A DNA stretch of 57,217 bases, the filler included, from Asterionella formosa (Eukaryota): NCBI GenBank assembly GCA_002256025.1. It is 6 parts of 6 records of this genome, joined end to end, with 100 filler letters (N's around TTAATTAATTAA, not from the genome) between each part and the next. Parts side by side here need not be neighbours in the genome. Positions count along the whole stretch, not along the records: positions 9,568 to 19,023 come from NKIB01010630.1; 5 more parts are not named here. The stretch is one strand, 5' to 3'. Below the pieces are notes generated by a model. The model was not told the origin of the DNA. It worked only from the letters and a program-made list of their open reading frames with translations, and made no database searches. This document shows positions 1 through 48,592 of this stretch, one piece after another (the first letter of the stretch is position 1; each line of letters opens with the position of its first letter). The position numbers and the translations under genes were made by a program.

Positions 1-544
1 CAGCACTGATGTATGTTAAAGAAAAGGATTTATTTGAGCAGGAGCTCCCATTGCTTGGCTGAAATGTCAAGAGTCTTTTTATTACACATAAAATCATATG
101 TTTTCAACCTTTCTGCCTTTTATGTACACATATATGCATTTTGTGCATGAAACCCTGGTACCAGGTACCAGGTACTGTATCTAACTACAAACACAGTAAA
201 CTTTTGTTGATCCTCCGTCGATACACCTCGCCTACTGTAGTACTGGTAGTAGCATACGATTCAAAAAGGCCATACTCATTGGAGCTTATAGTAAAAGGTT
301 CTACGATACAGGTGTACTGGCATTATGTACCGGTATGTTCAATAAAGGAAACAGATGTTCGTCGGAGTTAGATAACGGTATTATGTATCCCGGTAAACCA
401 GTACTTGTCATAATATAACGTCCGTATTTGAAGTCATCAGCAATTCATAACAACGGCGGGGCACGCACCAACTCCTCCCTACATATACTCTTACTATTGC
501 TTTCCATTTGCTTAGCTCGGTGTTCATACAATTTCAGAATCACC

Positions 545-3286
545 ATGCAGCAGCAGCAAGAACAAGGCGATCAGCAGCTCCCTCCACACTCCATTGATGT
601 TGACGAAGAACTTTCCCGGATACAGCATGCGTTGGAAGCAATTCACTCGACAAATCAAACACAGACGGCAGAATGCAATGATTGGTGGACCCGTCGTCAG
701 TTAGCTGATCGTTACTTAACCTCCTTTCAGCAGACAGCAGTTGCATGGATGGTTTGCGATCGCCTTTTGCAAGACACTTCTGGTGGTGGTAGTCCCATGA
801 TTTCACAGCAACGGCGCTTCTTTGCAGCGCAGACTCTTCATACGAAATGCAGGTCAGACGTTCAGCAGATCCCCTATGACAGCCTTTCATCATTGCGTGA
901 TTCACTCGTCACTCATTTGACGAACTCGTTTAGTCAGCCTGCATTAATTACTCGACTTGCCCTTTGCGTGGCGGCATTGTCGGTTCAAATGTCGTGGACA
1001 TCCATTGTGACTGATATGCTGGAAAAACTTGGGCATCAACAGGGAGTAGTGCTCCAAATTTTCAGGGTTTTACCAGAGGAGTGTGCGTCGGATCGGCTTA
1101 TATTGGTTGACGAGAATGCTCGCTATCTTATGAGGGATCAATTAATTAGCTCTTCTGGGCGGGTTATTAGCTACTCTAGCGAGTACTTGGTGCAAAACCA
1201 ACAGCTTGTCTTTGATATTTGGCTTGCCTGGGTCCGGTATGTACCGATTCCAGCCCATGTCATCGTCGAGTCCAACATTTTAGAAACCATTGTGCCGTCA
1301 CTACAAGAAATGAACGAAGAAACGTCGGTTGATGTATTGGTAGAGATTCTAAGGATGTACCCTAGTCACGTTCCCAGCAACGAAGGACTGGTCCAGAAGC
1401 TCCTTCCACTTGTCCTCTCGCTACCGTTAGACCAAGCTCTTCGAAGCGACGATGAAGATGTTCTTCGAGGCTACTGTCGGATTGTTACTGAATTGGGTGA
1501 ATCATATCTGAGTCTTATGCTGGACCCCGCCCAACAACAGATTTCACATACAATTGTCCAAGCGATGCTAAAGTGTTCCAGTATTGATGATGCAAGTATT
1601 ATCAGCATGACTTTTCAATTTTGGTACACATTTGTTGCTAGTCTGGAAAACATTCATGATTATCGTCAGCGACAAGAATTAGTCGATTCACACACTCCTG
1701 CTTTGTTGCAGTTACTTGACATCTGCATGCGGCACCTTCAATATCCATCTGATATTGACGGCCTTGCCGACGATATCGTTGATGACTTACATCGAGAGCG
1801 ATTCAATTTGGGAGAAACGATTGAAGATTGTTGCAGGCTCCTTGGTGGCCATGTTGTCCTAGAGAGGTTCGGTCGAAATTTGCAGCAGTCAACCGACTCG
1901 TGGATCAAGATTGAAGCTTGCCTGTGCGCTCTTCAGAGCTTGACTCGTTATATAGCAAGTGATGAAGAAACATATTTGCCAAGCTGCTTTGGACTTATTT
2001 TGCAGCTGCCTACTGATATCGACGCTCTTCGATTCACCTCTAGTGTGACCATTGGGAAATATTCTGAGTGGTTGGCGGCTCACCCTGTGCTTCTTCAGCC
2101 GCTACTTCCCTACCTTGCAGCCGGACTGTCGAATTCAAAATGTTCCACTGCTTCAGCCGTGGCAATTAAAGAGTTGTGCCGGAAAATTCAAATGGGTGAC
2201 TCTGTCTTGCAGCTTTACCAACAATCAGCTGGTAAAGTGGCTCTTCGCGATGAGTTGGAGATTTTGGAAGGTGTTTGTCAAACCATTCCTGAAAATCAAG
2301 CAGAGTCCTTTCTTCCACATCTGATACATCCAATCGGAAATAGAATGGTGGTAGCGTTAGCCGGAGACGAATCAAAGCAAGTTCTAGCCGAAGTTGATCG
2401 ATTGACAGTGGTTGTCCGCTTCCTTAGATTGAGTCATCCTCAGCTTCTCGAAGTAATGAAATCGAGCTGGGCACTGCTGGAAGCTGCATCTCAGAAATTC
2501 AGTAGCGATGCCATGATGGCAGAAAAGGTTTGTCGATTACACAAACATGCATTGCGAACATGCGGACCTCGAGTATATGAACCAATGCTGGGCGATCTCA
2601 TGTCGTACCTTGTGAAGTCCTTCGAGCTCTCGCATCAGTCCCCTTATTTGTATTGTGCCAGTATTTGCATCACAGAGTATCCCAACGACGGCCGACTACT
2701 AGATATGCTTTTTGCTCTATCTCACACAGCCTTCGGGTTTCTCAAGTCTTTGGATGACTTAACGACGTATCCTGACGTAGTGGAAGAGCTTTTCTATCTT
2801 ATGGGCCGTATGATGAATTATTGTCCAGAACCTCTTGTTGCTTCGCCACTTCTGTCTCATCTATTTCAATGCGCTGCCGTTGGCATGCAGCTTGATCACA
2901 AAGACGCTAATCGGGGAACACTAAATTTCCTCGAGAGTGCTATGAATTTCGGTCGATCTGGGCAGAATCATCGAGCTGCTCTAGAACCTACAGTTGTCAA
3001 CGAAGGGCAGGCGGTAGTTGCAAACCTCATTCGTGCTCTACTAGGAGATTTGCCTGCATATTGCATCGATAGTGGAAGTGGTTCCATAGCTGGGATCTTG
3101 TTCAAACTTAACGAGTTGTTCCCTGATTTATTGAAGCGATGGATTTCAGCGGCATTACCAACAACCCTTGATCGATCTGGGCAAGAACTCTTGGGTTCAT
3201 TGGCTGTAACTGATCGAAACGACTTCAATGTCGCGATCCGGGCGTTCCACACAGCGTGTGAACGACGTCGAAAGCTTCGACGATAG
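545..3286 (+). CDS. TNPO3: Transportin-3 / Mtr10 / MOS14-like importin-beta family protein (HEAT repeats)
   Basis: Intronless 913-aa ORF from the first good ATG (caccATG, 545). Importin-beta N-terminal motif (YLTSFQQ..AW...FFAAQTL..K) and TNPO3-like C-terminal motifs IGKYSEWL..HP, PDVVEELF.L and LDHKDAN. Confidence 0.85.
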   Translation: MQQQQEQGDQQLPPHSIDVDEELSRIQHALEAIHSTNQTQTAECNDWWTRRQLADRYLTSFQQTAVAWMVCDRLLQDTSGGGSPMISQQRRFFAAQTLHTKCRSDVQQIPYDSLSSLRDSLVTHLTNSFSQPALITRLALCVAALSVQMSWTSIVTDMLEKLGHQQGVVLQIFRVLPEECASDRLILVDENARYLMRDQLISSSGRVISYSSEYLVQNQQLVFDIWLAWVRYVPIPAHVIVESNILETIVPSLQEMNEETSVDVLVEILRMYPSHVPSNEGLVQKLLPLVLSLPLDQALRSDDEDVLRGYCRIVTELGESYLSLMLDPAQQQISHTIVQAMLKCSSIDDASIISMTFQFWYTFVASLENIHDYRQRQELVDSHTPALLQLLDICMRHLQYPSDIDGLADDIVDDLHRERFNLGETIEDCCRLLGGHVVLERFGRNLQQSTDSWIKIEACLCALQSLTRYIASDEETYLPSCFGLILQLPTDIDALRFTSSVTIGKYSEWLAAHPVLLQPLLPYLAAGLSNSKCSTASAVAIKELCRKIQMGDSVLQLYQQSAGKVALRDELEILEGVCQTIPENQAESFLPHLIHPIGNRMVVALAGDESKQVLAEVDRLTVVVRFLRLSHPQLLEVMKSSWALLEAASQKFSSDAMMAEKVCRLHKHALRTCGPRVYEPMLGDLMSYLVKSFELSHQSPYLYCASICITEYPNDGRLLDMLFALSHTAFGFLKSLDDLTTYPDVVEELFYLMGRMMNYCPEPLVASPLLSHLFQCAAVGMQLDHKDANRGTLNFLESAMNFGRSGQNHRAALEPTVVNEGQAVVANLIRALLGDLPAYCIDSGSGSIAGILFKLNELFPDLLKRWISAALPTTLDRSGQELLGSLAVTDRNDFNVAIRAFHTACERRRKLRR

Positions 3287-9467: not shown

Positions 9468-9567
9468 NNNNNNNNNNNNNNNNNNNNNNNNNNNNNNNNN
9501 NNNNNNNNNNNTTAATTAATTAANNNNNNNNNNNNNNNNNNNNNNNNNNNNNNNNNNNNNNNNNNNN
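9468..9567. other. Artificial contig spacer (N run with TTAATTAATTAA linker); also at 19024-19123, 28577-28676, 38127-38226, 47673-47772
   Basis: Five identical 100-nt spacers. Contig lengths decrease monotonically (9467, 9456, 9453, 9450, 9446, 9445), consistent with a length-sorted concatenation. Confidence 0.98.
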
Positions 9568-10645
9568 TATCGATTTGCAAGTTCCCAAGGTCAATACCCG
9601 TCGACACCAAGCACTTTTCACCCGTCAGTTTGCAATTGCTCTCCAAGTGCAATAGAGTTTCCACCGGAGAGTCTTCTTTGACTTCACCACTCCTACATAC
9701 TAGAATAATGAGCACATGTTTCGATCTTGTATCCGTCAAAAGCGCTTTGACTATATCCACACTGGCAGTGTCTGCCCAATGGATGTCGTCCAAAACGAAA
9801 ATTATAGGATGCTTCTCTGTTGCAACAGCCCTTAAAAAGGCGCGGCAGATCAATCGGAAGCGGGTTGAGCTTGGAGCACTGTAAGGTACAACATCCTGTT
9901 CCGAAAACGCGGAGCCTTTATCGTTTCCATCATTAATTATGATAGCGAGGTTTGAGATGAGCGATGTCATTCCTTTGCTGTCGTTTCCTAATGCCTCAGT
10001 GATCGCATCTTTCATTTCGTCAAGCTCGTCGGATTGCAATATCGCTTCACAAATGTCCGTGAAAGCATTCACGAGAGCAGAGAAGGGTTCATTCTTCGCC
10101 TGCAAATCGAACTTTCCGTATACGTAGTACGGTTCTTCGTCTCGTACTTGAACTGGGTTTCGAAGACTTTCGACCAACGCACTCTTCCCTGTTCCTGTAA
10201 ATCCTTTGACAAAGACGACTTCAGAATCATGCCCTGGATCGCAGATACGCTGGTATGCGTTTTCCAACAGGGCGAGTTCATGTTCTCTGCCATAAATCCT
10301 AGATTCTGCAACGGAGAGTTTCCTGTCAAAGATGTTGTCTCTGTCAAAGAAATTTCCCATTGTAAGCGAGCTGATCACAGTTCCATCAGAAGCCATACCA
10401 GGAAAAAGAAATAAATCTCTTCCGACAAAGTCATGAACATTCGAAGGGTTGAGACTCATATCGTAGTTCTCCAACGAAGACTGATTTCGTAATGGCCTCG
10501 TGACAGTGGCGTCCTCTGGAAGTATATTCCATTCATTCTCGATTTGTCTCGTCGTCATGATCACTTCGGATGACGAATTATTGCTGTATTTCAGCTCGTC
10601 CTCATCGTCAACCGCAACAAGGGGTTCTGGAGTCATGGTTTCCAT
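9568..10645 (-). CDS. STAND-type AAA_16 ATPase (kinase/histidine-kinase-associated type), 3'-truncated by contig end
   Basis: IYGREHEL, Walker A GFTGTGKS, YGKFD....PFSAL, Walker B IIFVLDDIHWAD, ILVCR. The ORF runs into the spacer. Confidence 0.85.
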
Positions 10646-10651
10646 TGTATT

Positions 10652-11630
10652 AATTGATCTTTCGTTAATTTTTTAAATTGATCTTGTGATCTTTCGTTAA
10701 TTTTTGTGATGGTGGACAAATAAATAGAAGTCGCTTTGAATTTCTGTACAGCATGGAGTACTGGTACTCGGTGTATGAACTGTCGCGTTTTGTGAGTGGT
10801 AGCTGTATACCCTTGTAAACGAGTATGCTGTTCTAGTCATACGCATTCAGTGTACAGTGCATACAGTGAACTGTACAGTGTATACAGTCCAAAATGGACA
10901 GTATAAAATACGTTCACCTCAAAAGCAAGAACAAACCGCCCAGATGGATTATCAATACCCGGTACCTCGTAGTCATACGTGACTACCGGTAGTCTTATCG
11001 GTATGCAAACGTATCATGGCAACCAAGTATGACTGGTCTACCGGTATAAATAATGCATATCAAGGGCGGTATGTAAAGTCTTCATTTGTCGTTCCTTGGA
11101 ATATTATGTATATAATCAGGCGACATTTACGAAGCCCTGCCTCCTGATGACGAAATATGATTGTTGATGACGTAATATGATTGTTGATGACGTCAGATGA
11201 GCAATCTCAAAGAATCAAAATACTACTACCTTATTGTGAGCGCCCCCGCTTCAACACAGATGTATATAGGGATAGGGTTATATCAAAAACTTGCGGGTGT
11301 GGAACAGGTACCAGGTAACAGAACTCAATAGTGAGAGAACTGCCTAGATACTTCCGGACCAGTACAGTACAGCAATTGATCTTTCGTAGATTTTTGTGAT
11401 CGCGATGGAAAATGTATGTATGAAATACAAGTCGCTTTGAATTTCGGGACAGCATGAAGTACCGGTACTCGGAGTATGAACTGTCGCGTTTTGTGTTGTT
11501 TGTAAATAATGGAGTACACGGGTAAACTGTACCCTTGTGCTAAACCAATAGTGACCATTTACAGAATATGCATACAGTGTACTCTACAGTGTATACATTG
11601 CACAGTGTGACCCAATGTTTGATACAGTAT
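10652..11630. repeat. Diverged ~250-bp direct duplication of the region upstream of the ATPase gene (10652-10905 vs 11374-11630)
   Basis: aattgatctttcgt..., aagtcgctttgaatttc..acagcatg.agtac.ggtactcgg.gtatgaactgtcgcgttttgtg and gcatacagtg are present in both copies. Confidence 0.85.
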
Positions 11631-13057
11631 ACTATATATATCTGTGCGTGGACTACATGCAGCAACGTAGATTCAATATAACGTATAAACAAGATACATG
11701 AGCATACATGTTGGCATACTCCTAATTTATATATGTGTTTTGGCGTTGAGCAAAATTATGTCTACATACAGCAATGCAGATATGGTATCAACGTTTAAAT
11801 ATCATTTTTGTTTGTTTCAAATGGAACTCAATCAATCTGGCCCCGCTTCCTATTTAATTCAAATATTCAAATGGACACTCGAATCATGGGAATTCATAGT
11901 AGGAAACTCCCTATTCCACGCCGTCCTTACAACCCTAACGATATTTTCTCCGAACTAGGGTTAAGCCGTGGCCGCAACCTTAAGTAAATTATCAATCGAA
12001 ACCTGATGCAAGTACGAAGAGTATGTTCGAAGATGCACTCTACTCAACGAATAAGTAATCAGTTTCGATTCAGTGTATCAAGCCATGGAGATCTAATATT
12101 TTCAAAGTCATTAAGATTGTTGCATAGCGGTGGCTTACAGTGCATGTTATTCTACACATACATGAATATATTTTCCCCCAAACCGTGATTATTTTTACTC
12201 CGTTTATACTACAGAAACTCTTTTCGTATTACTTCACCTGCTGTTAGGCGTGATACAATATGATTTTTGCGCTTGCCACCATCACCAAATGCTAATGACG
12301 CATAGTGTATTCGAAAGCATGATGATATTGTACATCTAATTAATTATACTAAATTAATTTTATCGGAAGAACATTATCATTCTTGTACATATGCCGGTAC
12401 ATGTATAGAAAAGGCGATGCCAGCTCAATAGAGTAAACGTGAAAATATCCATCATGTTTCGCAATTTCGCGTCAACAGCAACCTTTGGGCCATAATAAGT
12501 ATTTAACAACTTACACAAAGCAACAATACAAGTACGTAAGTATTTACTCGCTATATAAATCTGAACAAATACTTCGTGACAATAAATAACGTATCTTGCA
12601 AACTAAGTTCAAACCGTGCGTTTACTCCGTTTAGCGGTGACTTACAGTTCAAAAGTCGTCATAGCGGTGGCTTACAGTTTTTAACTGGTACCAGGTACTC
12701 TTTCCGTCCAGAAAGAGTTGCATCGATTTCTCAAAATTCTCCGGGGCCATTTGGACTCCAACGATTTTCTCCGGATCAATTGCTCAGTGCAGGCTTGCTC
12801 TAAGCAACAGATCCATGTACTAAAATTCCTGCATTTCAACCCTGGGGCAAAAATTAAAATATTGCTTGGTAGGGTTGCCAAAATTCTCCTGGAACTAAGA
12901 ATTTTTATGAGCTATTTTTGAATAATTATGATTCCATTTGAAATACCGGTATTCAAATCAATGGAAATTTGCACATAAATACATAGATCCCTTTTCGAAT
13001 TTGCTAAATATATATAAACATTCTACATTGCTCTATGTTTATATAGTAACCTATACC

Positions 13058-13275
13058 GGGGAATAGCTTAGGTGGTTAGCTCACCTTCCAAGGTGGCGGG
13101 TTCGATTCCCGCATTCTCCACCTGCTTTGTTTATGTGGTCCCTTGGGTTCCGGGTTGTGAGGCAGACAACAAGCAGGTCTAAGGCCCTCTGGGGGGCCAA
13201 GTGCGACTTCACAACCTCCACATTCGTCGAGTTCTTTAACAATAGCATACTATAAAATTTACTTTATAATTTTTT
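13058..13275 (+). mobile_element. tRNA(Ala)-derived SINE-like element with target-site duplication
   Basis: tRNA head at 13058-13120: acceptor GGGGAAT/ATTCTCC-A with G3:U70, A-box TAGCTTAGGTGG, T-arm GCGGG-TTCGATT-CCCGC, shortened anticodon arm. AT-rich tail. Direct repeat TATAGTAACCTATACC(G) at 13042-13058 and 13276-13292. Confidence 0.85.
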
Positions 13276-13393
13276 TATAGTAACCTATACCGATAATACG
13301 ATCAACATTGACTATATGTGGCATACAAGCTGGTAGCATGGCAAATATTGTTGATGACTACCAGTAAGAAACAAACAAATGCAACAATCCACC

Positions 13394-13924
13394 ATGAGCG
13401 AAATTACACATCACAATGATGACAATGGTGATGACAAATTTAACTACAGTCATGAAAGTTTTCCTACCTGTCAAGACTGGTTGATTGTAGAGTCGGCTGA
13501 GGAGGGATGTGAGGATCACATCTTCTGCGAATACTGCGATTTTGGTTGCCCCAAATGTCAGTGCCAATGGGATGAAGTAGAAGAATTGGTGGAGAAGTTT
13601 CTGGAACAAGGTGAATCCATTCTTACCAGGTTGAAGGATGAAGACAATATGGCATCAAGAGCTCGCAATCTTCTATACAAGATTTTAATCAGAGTTTTCA
13701 GTGGTCCATTGGGAAAAGGTGTTCAGATGCAAATTCCTGACTGTTGTTTGAAGGGGGTTCGATCTCTTTTGAAGAACAAGGACCCAAACAAAGTGTACAC
13801 TGGCTTCAAACCTGCTGTTTCTAAACGCGTTAAATCAAGTTACTATTTTCATTCATTTCAGTATATTTATCACTTCAATGCACCTAAGTATGTCGTTTCA
13901 AAAAATTTTAGAAGAAGCAAGTGA
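13394..13924 (+). CDS. P2X7 C-terminal 'ballast' (P2RX7_C)/KolX-like Cys-rich protein
   Basis: CxxC/CxxC cluster followed by R..LY.......GPLGKG....IPDCC..GVR.......YTGFK, the pattern I recognise for P2RX7_C-like domains. Lies directly upstream of a transposase fossil. Confidence 0.7.
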   Translation: MSEITHHNDDNGDDKFNYSHESFPTCQDWLIVESAEEGCEDHIFCEYCDFGCPKCQCQWDEVEELVEKFLEQGESILTRLKDEDNMASRARNLLYKILIRVFSGPLGKGVQMQIPDCCLKGVRSLLKNKDPNKVYTGFKPAVSKRVKSSYYFHSFQYIYHFNAPKYVVSKNFRRSK

Positions 13925-14249
13925 GGTGGCATGTATTCTTCGACTTTGTCTCAATGGTTATTTTTTTTAACATTGATCTATAGTTTGATAGTTTAACCCA
14001 TCAATAGTAGTAGCAACAAACAATATAGGCAACAACATCAACATGCCATGCTCTAGTGGTGCCCATCTTGTTTCCGAAATTGGAACTGGTTCATCGGCGA
14101 TGAAAATCAGAATTGGTGGTCATTGTCATCAACATCCTCTCCCCCTCTCCCAACAAATAAAGCAACTAACAACAACAGAAACAACAACCGTCTGAACAGC
14201 AGTCCCAGAACAGGAACCACTTAATCGACTGTAATTCATTCACTAGATT

Positions 14250-15852: not shown

Positions 15853-16429
15853 TCCCTAATTTATTCGGGTTAAACAAAATTTTATTTCACTTATCGAATA
15901 ATTATGTGTGCTCGTGACAAGACATGTTGACCAACTAGCTCCGCTACAATATTATGCTGCTTTCACCATATAATGAACGAAAGAGTCGCCAATTCCGATT
16001 CACTTATTATTTTTTCTGCTCCGACATATTTCTTTGATCTCAACTGGCAAATAACAACACATGCAAGAGGAAGATTCACACAGTAGAATTGAGCACACGT
16101 AGTGGTAGTCTATGTTGTAGGCACATTGTTTAGTCATTGTTGATTGTAGAGATTACAATAGCCTGCCAGATTAGAAAAAAAGCACCTTCTTGGTCCTCGT
16201 TGAGCATTGCATGTCTCCTTAGTGAATCGAAATTGAGATGTGCCACAATGGCCTTCTCTGTTTCGGAGCAGCTACAAATAGTCTACAGCGATAAGTCTAG
16301 CAGGTACAATATAGAAAAAGAATCAGAGGATGAGCAGCTGTCATCGATAGAATCCGTAAATTCATTAAGAAACAGCTGTTGCATATTTTTAATATTCAAT
16401 GCATGTTGCCAGAGTGAGTCAAAATTGAG

Positions 16430-18295
16430 ATGTTGATTGGTTGAGAAGGAGAGTTTGGCATTTTTGTTGCCACAGTACTGATGATCAGTCCACAAGCATC
16501 CGAAAATTTTACTCATCCTGATGCCTCCATTGATCAACATATAGTCGTTCTGAGAATATCGACAGTGGCCATGACGAATTTGATCTTGTGTACATCGAAA
16601 ACTTTGCTGGATATAAATCGGTCTTCAATTGGTGGAGAAAGATGGTGTGGAATACCGGTCATGCAGCAGTCCACAAGAACCGAAATTATACACATCCTGA
16701 TGACTAATTTGATCAATATATGTTCGTTTTGAGATTATCGATATTCGAAATGACGGCACTGTTTTCGTGTACATCGAATACTTTGCTGAATATAAATCGG
16801 CCTTATATTAGTGGAGAAAGATGGTTTGGAATGTTTGTAATGACAGCACTGATATTCATTTCACAGCAAGCACCGAGATTTTACAAACCTTCCTGATGAC
16901 CAATTCGATTTATATATGTTCGTTCTCAGAATATCGACATTCAACATGACTGCATTGATCTCGCGTACATCGAATACTATGCTGGATAGAAATCGGCCTT
17001 AAATTGGTGGAGAAAGATGGTTTAGAATTTTTGTTACGACAGCACTTATGATCACTGCACAGCAAGCACCGAAAATTTACACACCCTCTTGGCTGATGAC
17101 CAATTCGATCAATATATGTTCGTTTTGAGAATATCGATAATCGAAATGAAGGCAATGATCTTGTGTACATCGAATACCATGCTGGATACTAGAAATCGGC
17201 CATAAATTGGTGGAGACAGATGGCTGGTTTGGAATTTTTGTAACCACAGCACTGATGTTCCATCCATAGCAAGCACCGAAATTTTACACACCATCCTGAT
17301 GACCGATTCAATTAATATATATTAATTCTAAGATTATCGCCATTCGCCATGTCGGCATTGATCTCGTGTATATCGAATACTACTCTAGATAGAAATCAGC
17401 CTTAACATGGTGGAGCAAGATGGTTTGGAATTTTTGTTGCCACAGCACTTACAATCAGTCCACATGCACCGAAAATTTATTTCACATCCTGATGAACAAT
17501 TTGATCAAAATATGTTCGTTCTTAGTATATCGAAATTCATTATGACGGCATTGATTTCGTGTTCATCGAATACTATGATTGATATAAATTAGAATTATAT
17601 TGGTGGAGAAAGATGGATTGGAATTTTTGCTGCCACAGCACTGATGATCAGTCCACAAGCATCCGAAAAATTACACATTCGGATGCCTCCTTTGATCAAT
17701 ATATGATCGTTCTGATCATATCAACATTCGACATGACTGCATTGATTTTGTGTACATCAAATACTATGCTAGATAGAAATTGGCCTTAAATTGGTTGAGA
17801 AGGGTTGTTTGGAATTTTTGTTGCTACTGCACTAATGATCAAGCCACAAGTACCGAAAATTTTCACACCATCCTGATGACCAATTTGATCAATGTATGTT
17901 CGTTCTGAGCGAGCATATAGACATTCGAAATATCGGCTTTGATCTCGTGTAAATTGAATACTATGCTAGATAGAAATTGACAATGAATTGGTAGAGAAAG
18001 ATGGATTGGAAGTTTGGTTGTTAAAGCACTGGTCATCAGTCCACAGCAGACACCTAAAATTTAGACACCCTGATGCCTCCTTTGGAAAATATACGTTCGT
18101 TCTGAGCATATCGACATTCGACAAGAAGAATTTGATTTCGGGTACATCAAATAATATATTTGATAGAAATCGGCATCAAATTTGTTGAGAAAGAAAATGA
18201 ATTGGAATTTAGGTTGCTACAGCACTGGTCAGTAGTAGTCCACAGCAAGCACCAAAACCTTTTACACATCCTGATGACGAATTTGATCAATACTG
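16430..18295. repeat. Tandem array of ~10 diverged ~192-bp units
   Basis: Anchor ggtggagaaagatgg at about 16439, 16631, 16810, 17006, 17209, 17409, 17602, 17793, 17990 and 18184. Shared blocks cctgatgac..attcgatcaatatatgttcgttctgag and gtgtacatcgaatactatgct. Confidence 0.95.
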
Positions 18296-19391
18296 ACTAA
18301 GCATAGACTGCGCCAGTTTTTCTGAAGTACAATATACACAAATTTAGTACAAAATGAATGTTGGCGAGGAGGACCCCCGTCCACACCAGTTTTCTTCATG
18401 AAAAACAACTACTGCTGGAATGAAGGAACAAAATATCACATTCATGGTAAAATGAAATTGTTGTTATTGTTGTCGTTTTTGTCGTCTTTTCTGCTATCAT
18501 GCTTGTGTTCTCGTTGTCTTTATCGCTGTCACAGTTGTTTCTTCTGTAATTTTTCTTGTCCTTATTCTATTGTAATTTCGTTGTGGTTACTGTGGCTTTA
18601 TACCCTTCTCTTCCTTGGTGTTCCTCGCCCTGCGTTTGAACTTGGACATGCATTGTTTGATATGGAATGTAAAAAAGTCTTGTTTGTTAAAATCCAGCCA
18701 TCATCTGACTCTGTGAATCTTGTTCTTCGCTTCCAGATAACAAGGACTCTGTTGTGGGCCGGTTCCTCTGCATCTACAACGCCGATTATTGGTACAACCG
18801 CCACAAAAAAAACGCTAGTCAAATGTGATCACCCAAATTAATTATTTGGGTGGCCTACTATGAAAAATTGGGCTACGTACATAATTTAAGGGTATGAAAC
18901 CAAATATAAATGTGATGCATCATATAATATATATGATAGGATTGAACTAAAATAGTTTCGACAACTTCCATAAATTTTTATAAACCCACATAAATTTTGA
19001 GGCAAAGTAACAATATTTTTGTANNNNNNNNNNNNNNNNNNNNNNNNNNNNNNNNNNNNNNNNNNNNTTAATTAATTAANNNNNNNNNNNNNNNNNNNNN
19101 NNNNNNNNNNNNNNNNNNNNNNNATCATGAAAGGAGAAGCAGCGCACTCTGTCCATTAAATGTTCTAAAATGGATTTTTTGTACACGCGATTTTATTACA
19201 AAAAATTGACTCTTTAGACTCCTATTCCATTGACGATGTTTCCGTGATTACTGATTCTGATTCCGACATTTTGGAGAACGTTGAAAAGGCCGATATTGTC
19301 GAATTTTTGGACAACATTAGCTCAAGATTGGCAGTGTTTGAAGAAGTGTTAAGTACATAGCTAATCTTCATATAGCCCCAGAATATAACTT

Positions 19392-21634: not shown

Positions 21635-24600
21635 TTACATTGATTCGGCAAGCTTTAATCCACATGTACATCCCAACATCTTGCATCCACAGTTTGTATC
21701 TGCCCCATTCGTTATTCCGGAAGCGAGGGTTTCATCTTCAAACAATGGCTCCATCGCCCGACGACTCCTCAGACGAATTGGTTTCACCTTTTCGACTACT
21801 GAAGTGTTACTCTCAAAATCAACATTTGGTGTAAGTACCATTGGAACCACAGAGGATTGCCAAATGTTCATCTGTTCTTCTTCTTCGTCGTCATCGTCTT
21901 CTCCATCATACTCCTGTTCCTCATTACGCTTTTTGTAGATGAATCGCATGGTACCAAAAGAGGCAACCAAAACGAAAGCACCGCCCACAGATATTGCGAT
22001 CCAGATGTAGATGCTCAAGTTGGCTTGGGAGTTCGATCTGCCAGTGCCTGCAGATCCACCTTCCACAGGTGAATTTTTCGATCCCCCGTCTTCACGCAAT
22101 GTATAGTTTGTTGACTTGACAGTCACCACTTGACTAAATGCAGTGTCTTTGGTCGCCTGAAGCCTTACGACAAGGACAGTCCCATTGTCATCAAAGATGG
22201 TATTGCACATTGCTACTAAATCCAAATCCCCCACTTTTGCATCTCCCCTTACAAGCATACTTATTATAATATCAGTACCCTGAGCTAGTCGTCGTCGAAG
22301 TGTCGACTTTGATAATGATTGATTCAACACTGAAACTTTCACGTGTGAGACAGGAGGTACTTGGAGGCGTAACCAGTTGCCCAAAAAAGCTTCCGTGGTA
22401 TTTCGAAATGTCTCCATAGAGCTGACATCCATTTCATCCACCACATGGGCCATAGTGACAGATACATTGCCTTGTAAAGAATACACTTTGGTCAATGCAG
22501 GTTCAACAGTAAACGCAGATGGGGTGAATGTAGGATAATCAATAGGAGCAGTTGTAGGGCCCACAGATGGGGTGAATGTAGGATAATCAATAGGAGCAGT
22601 TGTAGGGACCACAGATGGGGTCAATGTAGGATAATCAGTATGTGCAGTTGTAGGGCCTTCAGTCGGTTCCAATGTAGGATGTTCAGAAGGAGAAGCTGTG
22701 GGGTCCGCAGTTGGTTGCAACGTAGGTTCCAATGTAGGATTCTCAGTAGGAAGATTTGTGAGTTCCGTGGTCGGTTCCAACGTAGGATACTGTGTAGGAG
22801 AAGCTGTAGGTTCCGCAGTTGGTTCTAACGTAGGTTCCAATGACGGATGCTCAGTAGATGAAGCGGTGGGGACTATAGTCGGGGGTTTTGTAGGATAATC
22901 AGTTGGAGGTGCTGTGGGTTCTGTAGTTGGGGTCATGGTTGGATCAGGAGTAGGAGAAGCAGTGGGTTTATTAGAAGGGGCCAATGTAGGATCAGGAGTA
23001 GGAGAAGCTGAAGTGGGCTTAACTGTCGGTTCAACAGAAGGTGAAGCGCTAGGAGAAGCTGACGGGTCTGCTGTCCTTGTTAACGACTTCAGTGTGATCA
23101 CTTGACTAAAGGAGGTGTTGTTAGTAGCCTGAAGCCGCTCAACAAGGATATATCCCTTGTAGTCAAAAATATTGTTGCACATTGTTGTCAAATCCAAATT
23201 GTCTACTACTGCTTCTCCAGTTACCATCATACTTATTATGATGTCATTGGCCTGCGCTATTCGTCGACGCAGTGTCGACTGAGTTAACAATTGATTCAGC
23301 ACCGTAACTCTTACGTTCGACACCGGAGGCACTTGGAGGCGCAACCAATTTCTCAAAAATGCTTGACTGGTATTGAGAAATGTCTCCGTGAAGCTATCAC
23401 CCAATTCAGCCCCCACGAGGGCCATAATTATTGATACATTGGCTTGTAAAGCATACACTACAGCGTTTGTAGGTGCCGTTGTAGGCGCTGTTGGTATCAA
23501 GACCGTAGGTTCAGGTGTAGGAAAAGCTGTAGGACGTAAAGTGGGAATATATGTAGGTTGCATAGTAGGTGAAGCAGTGGGGTTGGCAGTCGGTTTCAAT
23601 GTAGGAGAATCCGTTGGAGATGCTGTTGGGTCAGCAGTCGGGCTAGACGATGGATAATCAGTAGGAGCAGCTGTTGGGTCGGCAGTAGGGGCCGACGTAG
23701 GATGCATAGTCGGTGAAGCTGTTGGGTGGGCAGTAGGTTCCAACGTCGGATGATCAGTAGGTGAAGCTGTTGGGTGGGCAGTCGGGTTCAACGTAGGATT
23801 ATCAGTAGGAGCAGCTGTTGGGTCGGCAGTAGGGGTCGACGTAGGATGATCAGTAGGAGGGGCTGTCGGCTCCGCAGTCGGTTTCATCGTGGGATGATGA
23901 GTAGGAGAAGCTGTGGGCTCAGTTGTCGGTGCCAACGTCGGATGATCAGTAGGAGATGATGTTGGCTTTTTCGTCGGGGTCGATGTGGGTGCAACAGTTG
24001 GAGAAGCTGTGGGATCCACAGTCGGCTCCAAAGATGGCGCATCGGTAGGAGGACAACTGGGGTCAACAGATGGTGCCGGCGTAGGCTTAAAAGTAGGAGA
24101 AGCCGTAGGTTTAGCAGTAGGTGTCATTATAGGATAATCAGTAGGAGAAGCTGTGGCCACAGTAGTCGGTGCCAACGTCGGATGATCAGTAGGAGATGAC
24201 GTTGGTTCTTTTGTTGGGGTCAATGTTAATATTGATTCTGAAATGGGAGAAGCTGTAGGGTCCAAAATTTTATTTGTCTGAAGTAAGCTGGAATCAGTGG
24301 AGGGGGCCAAACTAAGTTTAGTAGGAGAAGGTGTGGAACTGGGGTCGGTAGATGGGACCACCGTCCACCTAATAGTAGGAGTAGTTGAAGTGTCCTCATT
24401 CGTGGGAAACATAAAATCTGCTCGAGGACCGGTAGTCATCGGTGCAGAAGTCGAGGAGTCTGATGGGCGCTCGTTTGGATTACTAGTCATTGGTGCAGAA
24501 GTCGCGGAGATTGTTGTACTCGCCGACGATGTAAATGGAGGATTGGTTACAGGGACACTAAGAGGGAAAGTAGTTCCAGAAGAAAGAGTGTTGGCCAAAT

Positions 24601-24727
24601 CCAAGATTGAAACAAGAAAAGGCACTTTGACATTCTTTGTTGTTAGCGGTGTTGGGGCTTTACTTGGTTGATACAATGACGCTCGGCAGTTCCCCAAAGA
24701 AAAGAGGAGAACTGCGAACCTTACCAT
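21635..24727 (-). CDS. Mucin-like PT-repeat type I membrane protein with two SEA-like globular domains
   Basis: Signal peptide MVRFAVLLFSLGNCRA, extensive PTxxPT repeats and two homologous ~130-aa domains (NWLRLQVPPVS.V.V.VLNQ...TLRRR.AQ). TM IYIWIAISVGGAFVLVASFG followed by an acidic cytosolic tail. Confidence 0.9.
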   Translation of the reverse strand: MVRFAVLLFSLGNCRASLYQPSKAPTPLTTKNVKVPFLVSILDLANTLSSGTTFPLSVPVTNPPFTSSASTTISATSAPMTSNPNERPSDSSTSAPMTTGPRADFMFPTNEDTSTTPTIRWTVVPSTDPSSTPSPTKLSLAPSTDSSLLQTNKILDPTASPISESILTLTPTKEPTSSPTDHPTLAPTTVATASPTDYPIMTPTAKPTASPTFKPTPAPSVDPSCPPTDAPSLEPTVDPTASPTVAPTSTPTKKPTSSPTDHPTLAPTTEPTASPTHHPTMKPTAEPTAPPTDHPTSTPTADPTAAPTDNPTLNPTAHPTASPTDHPTLEPTAHPTASPTMHPTSAPTADPTAAPTDYPSSSPTADPTASPTDSPTLKPTANPTASPTMQPTYIPTLRPTAFPTPEPTVLIPTAPTTAPTNAVVYALQANVSIIMALVGAELGDSFTETFLNTSQAFLRNWLRLQVPPVSNVRVTVLNQLLTQSTLRRRIAQANDIIISMMVTGEAVVDNLDLTTMCNNIFDYKGYILVERLQATNNTSFSQVITLKSLTRTADPSASPSASPSVEPTVKPTSASPTPDPTLAPSNKPTASPTPDPTMTPTTEPTAPPTDYPTKPPTIVPTASSTEHPSLEPTLEPTAEPTASPTQYPTLEPTTELTNLPTENPTLEPTLQPTADPTASPSEHPTLEPTEGPTTAHTDYPTLTPSVVPTTAPIDYPTFTPSVGPTTAPIDYPTFTPSAFTVEPALTKVYSLQGNVSVTMAHVVDEMDVSSMETFRNTTEAFLGNWLRLQVPPVSHVKVSVLNQSLSKSTLRRRLAQGTDIIISMLVRGDAKVGDLDLVAMCNTIFDDNGTVLVVRLQATKDTAFSQVVTVKSTNYTLREDGGSKNSPVEGGSAGTGRSNSQANLSIYIWIAISVGGAFVLVASFGTMRFIYKKRNEEQEYDGEDDDDEEEEQMNIWQSSVVPMVLTPNVDFESNTSVVEKVKPIRLRSRRAMEPLFEDETLASGITNGADTNCGCKMLGCTCGLKLAESM

Positions 24728-28330: not shown

Positions 28331-28705
28331 ATAGCATGGTTCATCTAAGCCGCGAAATACGCCACTTTTCGAAATTTCGTCTACGTATGAGTGTTAATTA
28401 TGTGGTACTTCACATGCATTAATGCCACTCTTCACGTAAAAAAGATTACTTTTAACGGTTTCATGTGAAGTTTTAACTGTTTCATGTGAAGTTTTCACAA
28501 TGAATTTTGAACGCGAGACTGAATTAGTTGATGTTTCAAATAATTCATTTGAAAGTTCAACTAAGATCCTGCTCTTNNNNNNNNNNNNNNNNNNNNNNNN
28601 NNNNNNNNNNNNNNNNNNNNTTAATTAATTAANNNNNNNNNNNNNNNNNNNNNNNNNNNNNNNNNNNNNNNNNNNNTTGAACATTGTTCATCCTAGTAAG
28701 TCAAC

Positions 28706-38126: not shown

Positions 38127-38226
38127 NNNNNNNNNNNNNNNNNNNNNNNNNNNNNNNNNNNNNNNNNNNNTTAATTAATTAANNNNNNNNNNNNNNNNNN
38201 NNNNNNNNNNNNNNNNNNNNNNNNNN

Positions 38227-47672: not shown

Positions 47673-48592
47673 NNNNNNNNNNNNNNNNNNNNNNNNNNNN
47701 NNNNNNNNNNNNNNNNTTAATTAATTAANNNNNNNNNNNNNNNNNNNNNNNNNNNNNNNNNNNNNNNNNNNNTTTTATATTTTATCATATATATTTTATT
47801 AGTCTATCCTCTGTGTGGACATATGCACCGGTAGACATTGCTTGTTTTTGAGTGTATGATATGGCGCGCCATATTGCGGTCTGGAGCTCGTAAAATGTTG
47901 TTGGTACCGGAGTACGTCGGAACAAAATTTACTCTACATTATCATACCGTATATGTATGACATGTATGAAAGTCGCTCATGCGTCCTTCTTGCTGTCGTT
48001 GGCTGACCGACACACCGGTTTCTATACCAGGTCCCTGTTACCCCTGGTAGCAGATGATATATCATGCCAGCACGATCATGATACCTGAAAAAGTTGCAGC
48101 AACTTTGCTATACTAAAGATTTAGCTATTTTTATCCCAGATTATTGTTGATTTAAGCAAAATGATCTCAATCTGCTGGTAGGTAGCATGTGCTACGGGTC
48201 CCAGAGTAACAGATACTGGTACCAGGGTACCAGCAATATCCTGAACGCCCACGGTGATGGTGTGGTGGAATAACAAGAACGACACAGTAACGGCGGCGCG
48301 ATTACAAGCAAGGTACCGGTAGCAGTGACCCAATTAACTGGTAGTACCAGGTACCAGGTGCCAACGGCAGTTCTTGTTCGTCTTCTACTTCGACTTGGTC
48401 TGCTCCCAGGTAGAACTGCTGTTTGATCTCTGCATGCCGGTATTAACCTTGTTGGTCCTTTGAGTTACTTGAGTTACTTGTCGTTTAGCAGTACACTGAT
48501 GCATAACAAAATAGAAAGACAGAGAGAGGAGAAAGAGAGAGAAAGCGAGAAAAAAACGAGAACAAGCCAGCCTATAATTGGTACCGGTAGTC

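Follow-up and report, generated by a model that had tools for sequence, protein, structure and literature searches.

In a 57,217-nucleotide (nt) stretch of DNA from Asterionella formosa (assembly GCA_002256025.1; the whole stretch is called the window below), positions 13058 to 13275 very probably, with a chance that we put at roughly 80%, represent a full-length copy of a family of short interspersed elements (SINEs) with a tRNA-Ala-like head in a freshwater pennate diatom. This reading is carried by the anatomy of the insert, the target-site duplication around it, the dispersal of many copies that share a sharp 5' end, the occurrence of paralogous sites that are free of the element, and RNA that is confined to the element. 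A preliminary description made from the sequence had proposed a tRNA-derived SINE, and what it predicted on this basis, namely dispersed copies, element-free sites, and rejection of the head by a tRNA finder, was borne out.

Results

Boundaries and target-site duplication

The insert measures 218 nt (48% G+C) and lies between two copies of an exact 17-nt direct repeat, TATAGTAACCTATACCG (Table 1), which a repeat finder lengthened to 22 of 24 identical positions when the preceding AT-rich bases were included. Upon simulating 12700-13700 with 200 first-order Markov sequences and collecting exact direct repeats at a spacing of 100 to 500, we obtained a longest repeat of 13 nt, compared to the 17 nt observed. 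As the last G of the left repeat copy doubles as the first base of the element, the duplication is either 16 or 17 nt long; we placed the start of the element at this shared G because the matches of contigs from other copies set in at 13058. The element thereby begins at base +1 of the tRNA-like head and finishes in a T run, with no terminal inverted repeats detected at its ends by the repeat finder and no TG...CA ends seen in its sequence. The preliminary description had claimed a 218-bp element bracketed by an identical 16- to 17-bp direct repeat and starting exactly with a tRNA-like head, and both statements held: the repeat is exact, the insert opens on base +1 of the cloverleaf, and this is where the matches of other copies open as well. 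A duplication of 16 to 17 bp fits target-primed reverse transcription.

A compact tRNA-Ala-like head

When folded alone, the head forms a four-arm cloverleaf of 21 base pairs (7 in the acceptor stem, 4 in the D arm, 5 in the "anticodon" arm, and 5 in the T arm), one of them a G:U pair, without linker bases and without a variable loop. Its folding energy of -24.9 kcal/mol corresponds to a z-score of -2.25, with 5 of 200 shuffled sequences folding equally well. By the same two measures, the fold of the whole element was no better than that of its shuffles (z-score of -0.79, 41 of 200 as good), and we claim no structured body. The perfect T arm, the G3:U70 pair, and the discriminator A that had been read from the sequence were all found in the fold, and the anticodon arm described as collapsed proved to be a 5-bp arm with a 4-nt loop, leaving no anticodon loop. 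G3:U70 and A73 together make up the established alanine identity set. The alanine assignment of the head rests on these two features and, as far as sequence likeness goes, is supported by the best tRNA-Ala database matches described below.

The promoter boxes of RNA polymerase III (Pol III) claimed in the preliminary description could be located as an A-box-like motif, TAGCTTAGGTGG, and a B-box-like motif, GGTTCGATTCC, both of which agree with the A and B box consensus. The two are spaced 23 nt apart, which is less than in tRNA genes. Right after the discriminator A, the letters CC at 13121-13122 give ...TCTCCACC, resembling an encoded partial CCA end, with a chance of 1 in 16. It is an old idea that some tRNA-derived SINEs perhaps descended from a CCA-tailed tRNA.

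ARAGORN reported no tRNA or transfer-messenger RNA (tmRNA) in the window, nor in the element region at 80% thresholds, so that the head is rejected by a tRNA finder as foreseen; its permissive mitochondrial mode alone listed the head, with a 2-nt "anticodon". No Rfam family reached its gathering score anywhere in the window. An Rfam search of 12500-13800 by E-value gave four matches, the best of them to tmRNA (RF00023), which scored 28.1 bits on the head against a gathering score of 47 (E of 3.4e-9 for the 1.3 kb searched) and aligned the two ends of the model only, skipping 304 internal model positions. Such an ends-only match is expected of an alanine-tRNA-like acceptor and T arm in the absence of an anticodon arm and provides no evidence for tmRNA. 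Two candidates were rejected on these grounds: a tmRNA, by its 28.1 versus 47 bits, the 304 missing model positions, and the empty tmRNA mode of ARAGORN; and a functional tRNA-Ala gene, by the loop of 4 nt where a 7-nt anticodon loop would be needed, the lack of an Ala anticodon or any other, and the negative results from ARAGORN and Rfam.

Using blastn, we compared the head (as a 66-nt query) with 50,697 phage records and matched 259 of them, none over 80% of the head. Among the 30 matches listed, the lowest E-values (2e-5 and 3e-4) belonged to six tRNA-Ala rows and one tRNA-Cys row, all from Streptomyces phages and spanning head positions 34-64 at 93.5-96.8% identity (top row: tRNA-Ala, 96.8%, E of 2e-5); the rows with the widest cover (head positions 19-55, 81%, E of 0.1) fell on tRNA-Gly or unannotated DNA, and two tRNA-Thr rows had an E-value of 0.01. 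A gapped alignment with one Streptomyces phage tRNA-Ala, which stands in for the diatom's own tRNAs and says nothing on nuclear versus organellar descent, yielded 51 identities over 66 head positions, with 4 nt of gap where the acceptor and D arms join and 6 nt within the anticodon arm. Here, AGGTG, the 3' strand of the mini-arm, aligned with the variable loop of the phage tRNA-Ala. The head appears to have descended from tRNA-Ala through the loss of ~10 nt, most of the anticodon arm included. This shortened yet fully paired alanine-tRNA mimic is the most unusual trait of the element.

A dispersed family with several linkers

For a survey of the family, we aligned Logan contigs of four public runs, chosen from 24 runs, to 12300-14100 at 80% likeness: three DNA runs (X1, X2, and X6) and one lake metatranscriptome (X16). 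Most of the runs in which the stretch occurs are metagenomes from lakes, rivers, or fresh water. At positions 13137, 13156, 13223, and 13225 of the body, the family-majority letter was found in at least 94-110 distinct X1 contigs, 26-44 X2 contigs, and 7-12 X6 contigs, where contig counts (taken at 80% likeness from runs labeled metagenome) are not copy numbers per genome. Since the majority letter at all four positions differs from that of the 13058-13275 copy, this copy is one variant among many.

The 5' end of the family is sharp. In contigs that start to match exactly at 13058 (26 in X1 and 22 in X2), the letters upstream are AT-rich and mutually discordant (agreement of 0.43 in X1 and 0.42 in X2), as expected of copies in different places. 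The 913 nt of one X1 contig (record 3) comprise a match to 13063-13258 followed by ~700 nt of other sequence. At the 3' side, the summed X1 depth drops 4.5-fold past 13275, from 333,770 (13215-13275) to 73,751 (13276-13336), and the match of a further X1 contig (record 5) stops at 13272, with 38 more letters following. The many dispersed copies that had been predicted were therefore recovered, with ~100 or more X1 contigs covering the body and a joint 48 contigs from X1 and X2 starting at 13058 with differing flanks. Within the 57-kb window, blastn at word size 7 found no second copy of the element, which is not tandem. Scanning JGI metagenome contigs, IMG/VR, and GTDB genome contigs for a CpG-free 20-mer of the head returned 1, 0, and 1 loci, respectively, and both loci were discarded as chance hits that have only a 20- to 21-nt word in common with the element.

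Variation within the family concentrates behind the head: 38 X1 and 19 X2 contigs have loose ends behind 13124 that lead into a related but different linker, and several contig joints skip 31-44 nt inside 13127-13172. Further downstream, the AT-rich tail noted in the preliminary description is present and ends in T6. This tail lacks poly(A), and a weak AU hairpin is found shortly before the 3' end. On the plus strand of 13058-13292, the T run at 13270-13276 is the only one to reach four T or more.

A repeated host site and its element-free relatives

The flanks of the element are a high-copy repeat themselves, a point that the preliminary description had missed. A total of 13,564 X1 contigs fall on 12300-14100, with every bin from 12300 to ~13824 covered many times and with the summed cover peaking at 12544-12726 and 13337-13824, followed by a steep fall past ~13824. 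An open reading frame (ORF) at 13379-13924 encodes a Cys-rich product of 181 amino acids (aa), and metagenome assemblies contain 30 relatives of this ORF (49-90% identity); it matched no Pfam family, and the ESM Atlas gave no usable match. The ORF at 14313-14813 matches the Pfam family PF20700 Mutator (28.9 bits, with a cut-off of 26.5). Together, the ORF at 13379-13924 and this Mutator-like remnant probably make up a Mutator-like element, now decayed, in which the SINE resides.

Several contigs carry this host repeat without the element. One joint in X1 (13048>13282) unites equivalent places of the two copies of the 17-nt repeat with 5 extra letters, and another (13059>13313) has 17 letters in between that resemble 13294-13312; neither holds the element. 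In X6, contig 23, with a depth of 35.5 compared to ~4-5 in its neighbors, has upstream-flank letters directly before 13313. These element-free contigs hold the flanks and a single copy of the 17-mer. Because of their short sides (20-27 nt) and extra indels, they are to be regarded as paralogues and not as alleles. The predicted empty site was thus found in the form of element-free sites with one 17-mer, as paralogues of the host repeat, but not as a proven empty allele. The suggestion of a young insertion fared less well: another X6 contig, record 22 of organism A, aligns over 13217-13543 with 17 differences and 3 gaps and bridges the 3' junction, indicating that such a filled site also occurs in organism A and that the insertion need not be very young.

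RNA confined to the element

The X16 lake metatranscriptome contributed three contigs, all inside 13073-13268, one of which is identical to the 13058-13275 copy over 113 nt (13097-13209). The expressed variant has the linker of this copy, without a T run. No cover was seen in X16 for 26 of the 30 bins, among them flanks whose abundance in the DNA runs matches that of the element, a gap that serves as an internal contrast to the element only and is no proof of silence. That the RNA is limited to the element speaks for the element being transcribed and against mere DNA carry-over.

Host of the element

The transportin-3 ORF of the window (428-3286) has relatives at 78-100% identity, and its organism-named relatives, at 42-52% identity, are all raphid pennate diatoms (Nitzschia, Cylindrotheca, Pseudo-nitzschia, Seminavis, Fistulifera, Mayamaea, and Phaeodactylum). 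Judged by such relatives and by the origin of the runs, the host of the element is a freshwater pennate diatom.

Table 1. Coordinates of the element, its parts, and its flanks, with the basis of each assignment.
Feature	Position	Strand	Basis or remark
Upstream flank, host repeat	12300-13041		all bins 12300-13031 covered by many contigs, 80-99% likeness
Left target-site duplication	13042-13058		exact 17-nt repeat; single copy in element-free paralogous contigs
tRNA-Ala-like head, 63 nt	13058-13120	+	fold, sub-threshold Rfam match, tRNA-Ala database matches, contig starts
Acceptor stem	13058-13064 / 13113-13119	+	G13060:T13117, the third pair, is G3:U70
A-box-like motif	13064-13075	+	sequence reading
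D arm	13065-13081	+	fold; stem and GG loop as in tRNA
Mini "anticodon" arm	13082-13095	+	5 bp CACCT/AGGTG, 4-nt loop
T arm	13096-13112	+	fold
B-box-like motif	13099-13109	+	sequence reading; in T stem and loop
Discriminator A	13120	+	sequence and fold
Body	13121-13269	+	no Rfam match; variable linker ~13125-13170 differing between subfamilies
Terminal T6 run, Pol III terminator-like, element 3' end	13270-13275	+	AT-rich tail; contig depth drop
Right target-site duplication	13276-13292		exact 17-nt repeat
Downstream flank, host repeat	13293-13924	+	high contig cover to ~13824; ORF 13379-13924

Other features of the window

Away from the element, positions 16420-18300 form an array of ~9-10 diverged tandem units of ~195 bp each (61-83% identity), the ORFs of which had no Pfam match. 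Two direct repeats, one of 73 nt (92%) and one of 39 nt (85%), connect 10722-10896 with 11423-11607 across ~700 bp and sit downstream of a STAND/AAA_16 ATPase-like ORF at 9512-10645. On the minus strand, 21635-24727 holds a 1,030-aa ORF with disordered PT (Pro-Thr) repeats (PF04886, E of 9e-42) in a region of strong GC skew. Five pairs of 44-base N blocks, at 9468-9567, 19024-19123, 28577-28676, 38127-38226, and 47673-47772, recur with a spacing of ~9.55 kb and are masking-like rather than biological. A scan for bacterial promoters and terminators, signals of no relevance to a eukaryote, found nothing.

Discussion

Proposed mechanism of retroposition

We infer transcription by Pol III, target-primed reverse transcription, and the kind of partner element from the features described above. 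In the scheme that we propose, the internal A and B boxes would direct Pol III to initiate on or beside base +1 of the head; the polymerase would cross the body, which in this subfamily offers no stretch of at least four T, and would stop once it reaches the terminal T run. The RNA would then be copied by a reverse transcriptase provided in trans, at a staggered nick in DNA that is AT-rich, and a target-site duplication of 16-17 bp would result; the target in this case would have been the non-coding portion of a different repeat, with a Mutator-like transposase remnant next to it. Because the tail lacks poly(A), it points to a partner that recognizes the 3' sequence, as in SINEs dependent on RTE elements. 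The source of the enzyme would most likely be a non-LTR element (one without long terminal repeats, LTRs) that recognizes a non-poly(A), AT-rich 3' end, RTE-like by analogy.

A number of observations weigh against this account. No reverse transcriptase or endonuclease family was matched by 94 of the 95 stop-to-stop ORFs of at least 90 aa in the window, the remaining ORF, which contains masked bases, being left out of the scan; nor was an RTE element seen in the window. A T stretch ~10 nt upstream of the duplication, given as typical of RTE targets in passages of PMC6007223, is absent at this one site. With its A-B spacing of only 23 nt, the head is not assured of promoter function. The commoner subfamily, furthermore, seems to hold a T6 run ~5-12 nt past the head (the consensus agreement of the loose ends being only 0.58-0.62), which, if real, would imply an early stop of Pol III in that subfamily. 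The RNA contigs cannot reveal the polymerase, the strand, or the ends, and the database scan supplied no second full copy with which the duplication could be compared.

Alternative origins

The copies might instead be retropseudogenes of a single cellular gene for a tRNA-like Pol III RNA with a function of its own, that is, a compact alanine-tRNA mimic with a 3' extension, the dispersed copies being by-products of this master gene. The intactness of 21 of 21 head pairs in a compact cloverleaf, the alanine identity set in its G3:U70/A73 acceptor, and the exact match of the RNA contigs to one variant all speak for such a gene. We nevertheless consider this improbable, as a body and tail beyond the small-RNA part are the practical mark by which SINEs are told from RNA pseudogenes in passages of the SINEBase paper (PMC3531059), as ~100 or more variants are many for pseudogenes, and as subfamilies with different linkers and deletions of 31-44 nt fit several source copies.

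We further considered whether the insert could be a DNA-level element or an internal piece of the Mutator-like repeat around it (such as a fragment that was captured or a miniature inverted-repeat transposable element), with the direct repeat being a feature of the host repeat. The repetition of the whole of 12300-13824 and the Mutator remnant 1 kb downstream would agree with this, but contigs with unrelated upstream flanks begin at 13058, element-free relatives of the host repeat keep one copy of the 17-mer, and the ends have no terminal inverted repeats. Mutator elements produce duplications of 9-10 bp, a size that the 16-17 bp found here does not fit. Overall, we regard such an origin as very improbable.

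An organelle- or bacterium-derived fragment of a tmRNA or tRNA that landed in the nucleus has still less to recommend it. It could account for tmRNA as the best Rfam match (28.1 bits), for the 96.8% identity of the T arm and the 3' acceptor strand to a bacterial-type phage tRNA-Ala, and for the CC after the discriminator. The tmRNA score, however, is below 47 and arises from the tRNA-like ends only, as it would for a tRNA-Ala without an anticodon arm; ARAGORN finds no tmRNA, the D arm is tRNA-like with its stem and GG loop, and the many copies, the duplication, and the sharp ends would go unexplained. Equally far-fetched is the solo LTR of an LTR retrotransposon that is non-autonomous and bears a tRNA-like Pol III promoter in its LTR, a type (TRIMp3 or Helenus) that exists in fungi, animals, and plants according to passages of PMC10886601, since Helenus duplications measure 4-5 bp and not 16-17, no second 218-nt copy forms a repeat pair in the 57-kb window, no TG...CA ends are seen, and the unit starts at tRNA base +1 and finishes in a T run.

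Significance of the head and the family

For a SINE family with a tRNA-Ala-like head, which remains our preferred reading, the compactness of the head invites a more speculative view. We see an outside chance that the head is a selected compact alanine-tRNA mimic of 63 nt that has kept its 21 pairs and G3:U70/A73, with an anticodon arm rebuilt from the old variable loop, and that it is freed by RNase P and RNase Z and perhaps CCA-tailed and charged with alanine. If true, this would be a nuclear, retroposon-borne counterpart of the tRNA-like domain of tmRNA or of tRNA-like small RNAs of the mascRNA type and, in addition, the first SINE family from diatoms that is both structurally defined and expressed. 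The head raises the question of whether it acts as a promoter, an RNA-processing signal, or both.

A family with head, body, tail, duplication, subfamilies, and environmental RNA provides a concrete case for non-LTR retroposition machinery that is active, or was recently so, in a pennate diatom. For a lake diatom, its insertions offer presence/absence markers at the level of strains and species, and the family offers a Pol III-type small RNA to look for.

Comparison with known systems

Rodent ID elements and BC1 RNA represent a tRNA-Ala-derived SINE with an A-rich tail that depends on L1 and is mammalian. The present element appears to share the alanine-tRNA-derived head with them but neither the A-rich tail, the L1 dependence, nor the mammalian host, and there is no relation by descent. 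With the tRNA-like domain of tmRNA (RF00023), it has in common the G3:U70 acceptor, the T arm, the lack of an anticodon arm, and ...CUCCACC at the 3' side; unlike tmRNA, it has no mRNA-like domain or pseudoknots, has a D stem, and is eukaryotic, nuclear, and multicopy. TRIMp3 and Helenus elements, as characterized in passages of PMC10886601, differ by two LTRs with tRNA-like sequence, a primer binding site and a polypurine tract in between, and duplications of 4-5 bp, as opposed to an element that is single in the window and flanked by 16-17 bp.

Passages of the SINEBase paper (PMC3531059) describe a SINE as a short (<1 kb), interspersed, non-tandem repeat of at least 100 copies that resembles a tRNA with 60% identity or more across 60 nt and is reverse-transcribed by a partner long interspersed element, with which it has its 3' end or poly(A) in common, and name tRNA-derived SINEs of the head-body-tail type as the commonest class, with a mean SINE length of 253. 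Set beside this description, the element is below 1 kb at 218 nt, interspersed, and non-tandem, with differing flanks at 13058; its head is identical to tRNA-Ala, in the phage stand-in, at 51 of 66 positions; and its body is covered by at least 94-110 distinct X1 contigs, contigs not being copies and the run being labeled metagenome. It resembles the tRNA-derived SINEs of PMC3531059 in its shortness, its many dispersed copies, and a target-site duplication of the variable-length type, and it differs in having a head that is a 63-nt cloverleaf without an anticodon loop and with a 23-nt A-B spacing, as well as in its diatom host.

As for the partner, SINEs mobilized by RTE elements lack poly(A) and tend to have duplications that begin with T, as stated in passages of PMC6007223, and an RTE-like non-LTR family has been reported in the diatom T. 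pseudonana in passages of PMC2806351. The plant Au-like SINEs, mobilized by long interspersed elements of the RTE clade (PMC6007223), are likened here by description and not by sequence: they share the tRNA-type head, the lack of poly(A), a duplication starting with T, and a weak AU hairpin close to the 3' end, but not the absence of the upstream T stretch at this site.

Among diatoms, the label "putative SINEs" has been used in main-text passages for 13 copies (1,454 bp) in P. tricornutum (PMC5859163); C. cryptica has RepeatMasker SINEs (PMC7466962), a 2021 paper has SINEs otherwise reported only in C. cryptica and S. costatum (PMC8147415), and a SINE class appears in a composition plot for Pleurosigma (PMC12803021). 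These share the host group and the label with our family; they are set apart by description, being outputs of automated classifiers without head, tail, or duplication anatomy in the main-text passages. Kinship between them and the element is unlikely because of the 42-50% protein identity between the host and the named diatoms. Our literature search, outside which lay supplements, Repbase, and Dfam, turned up classifier tallies only and no diatom SINE whose head, tail, or duplication is described, in line with the earlier remark that SINEs are poorly documented in diatoms. SINEs with a tRNA head are a known class, and a diatom family with defined anatomy has hardly been described before.

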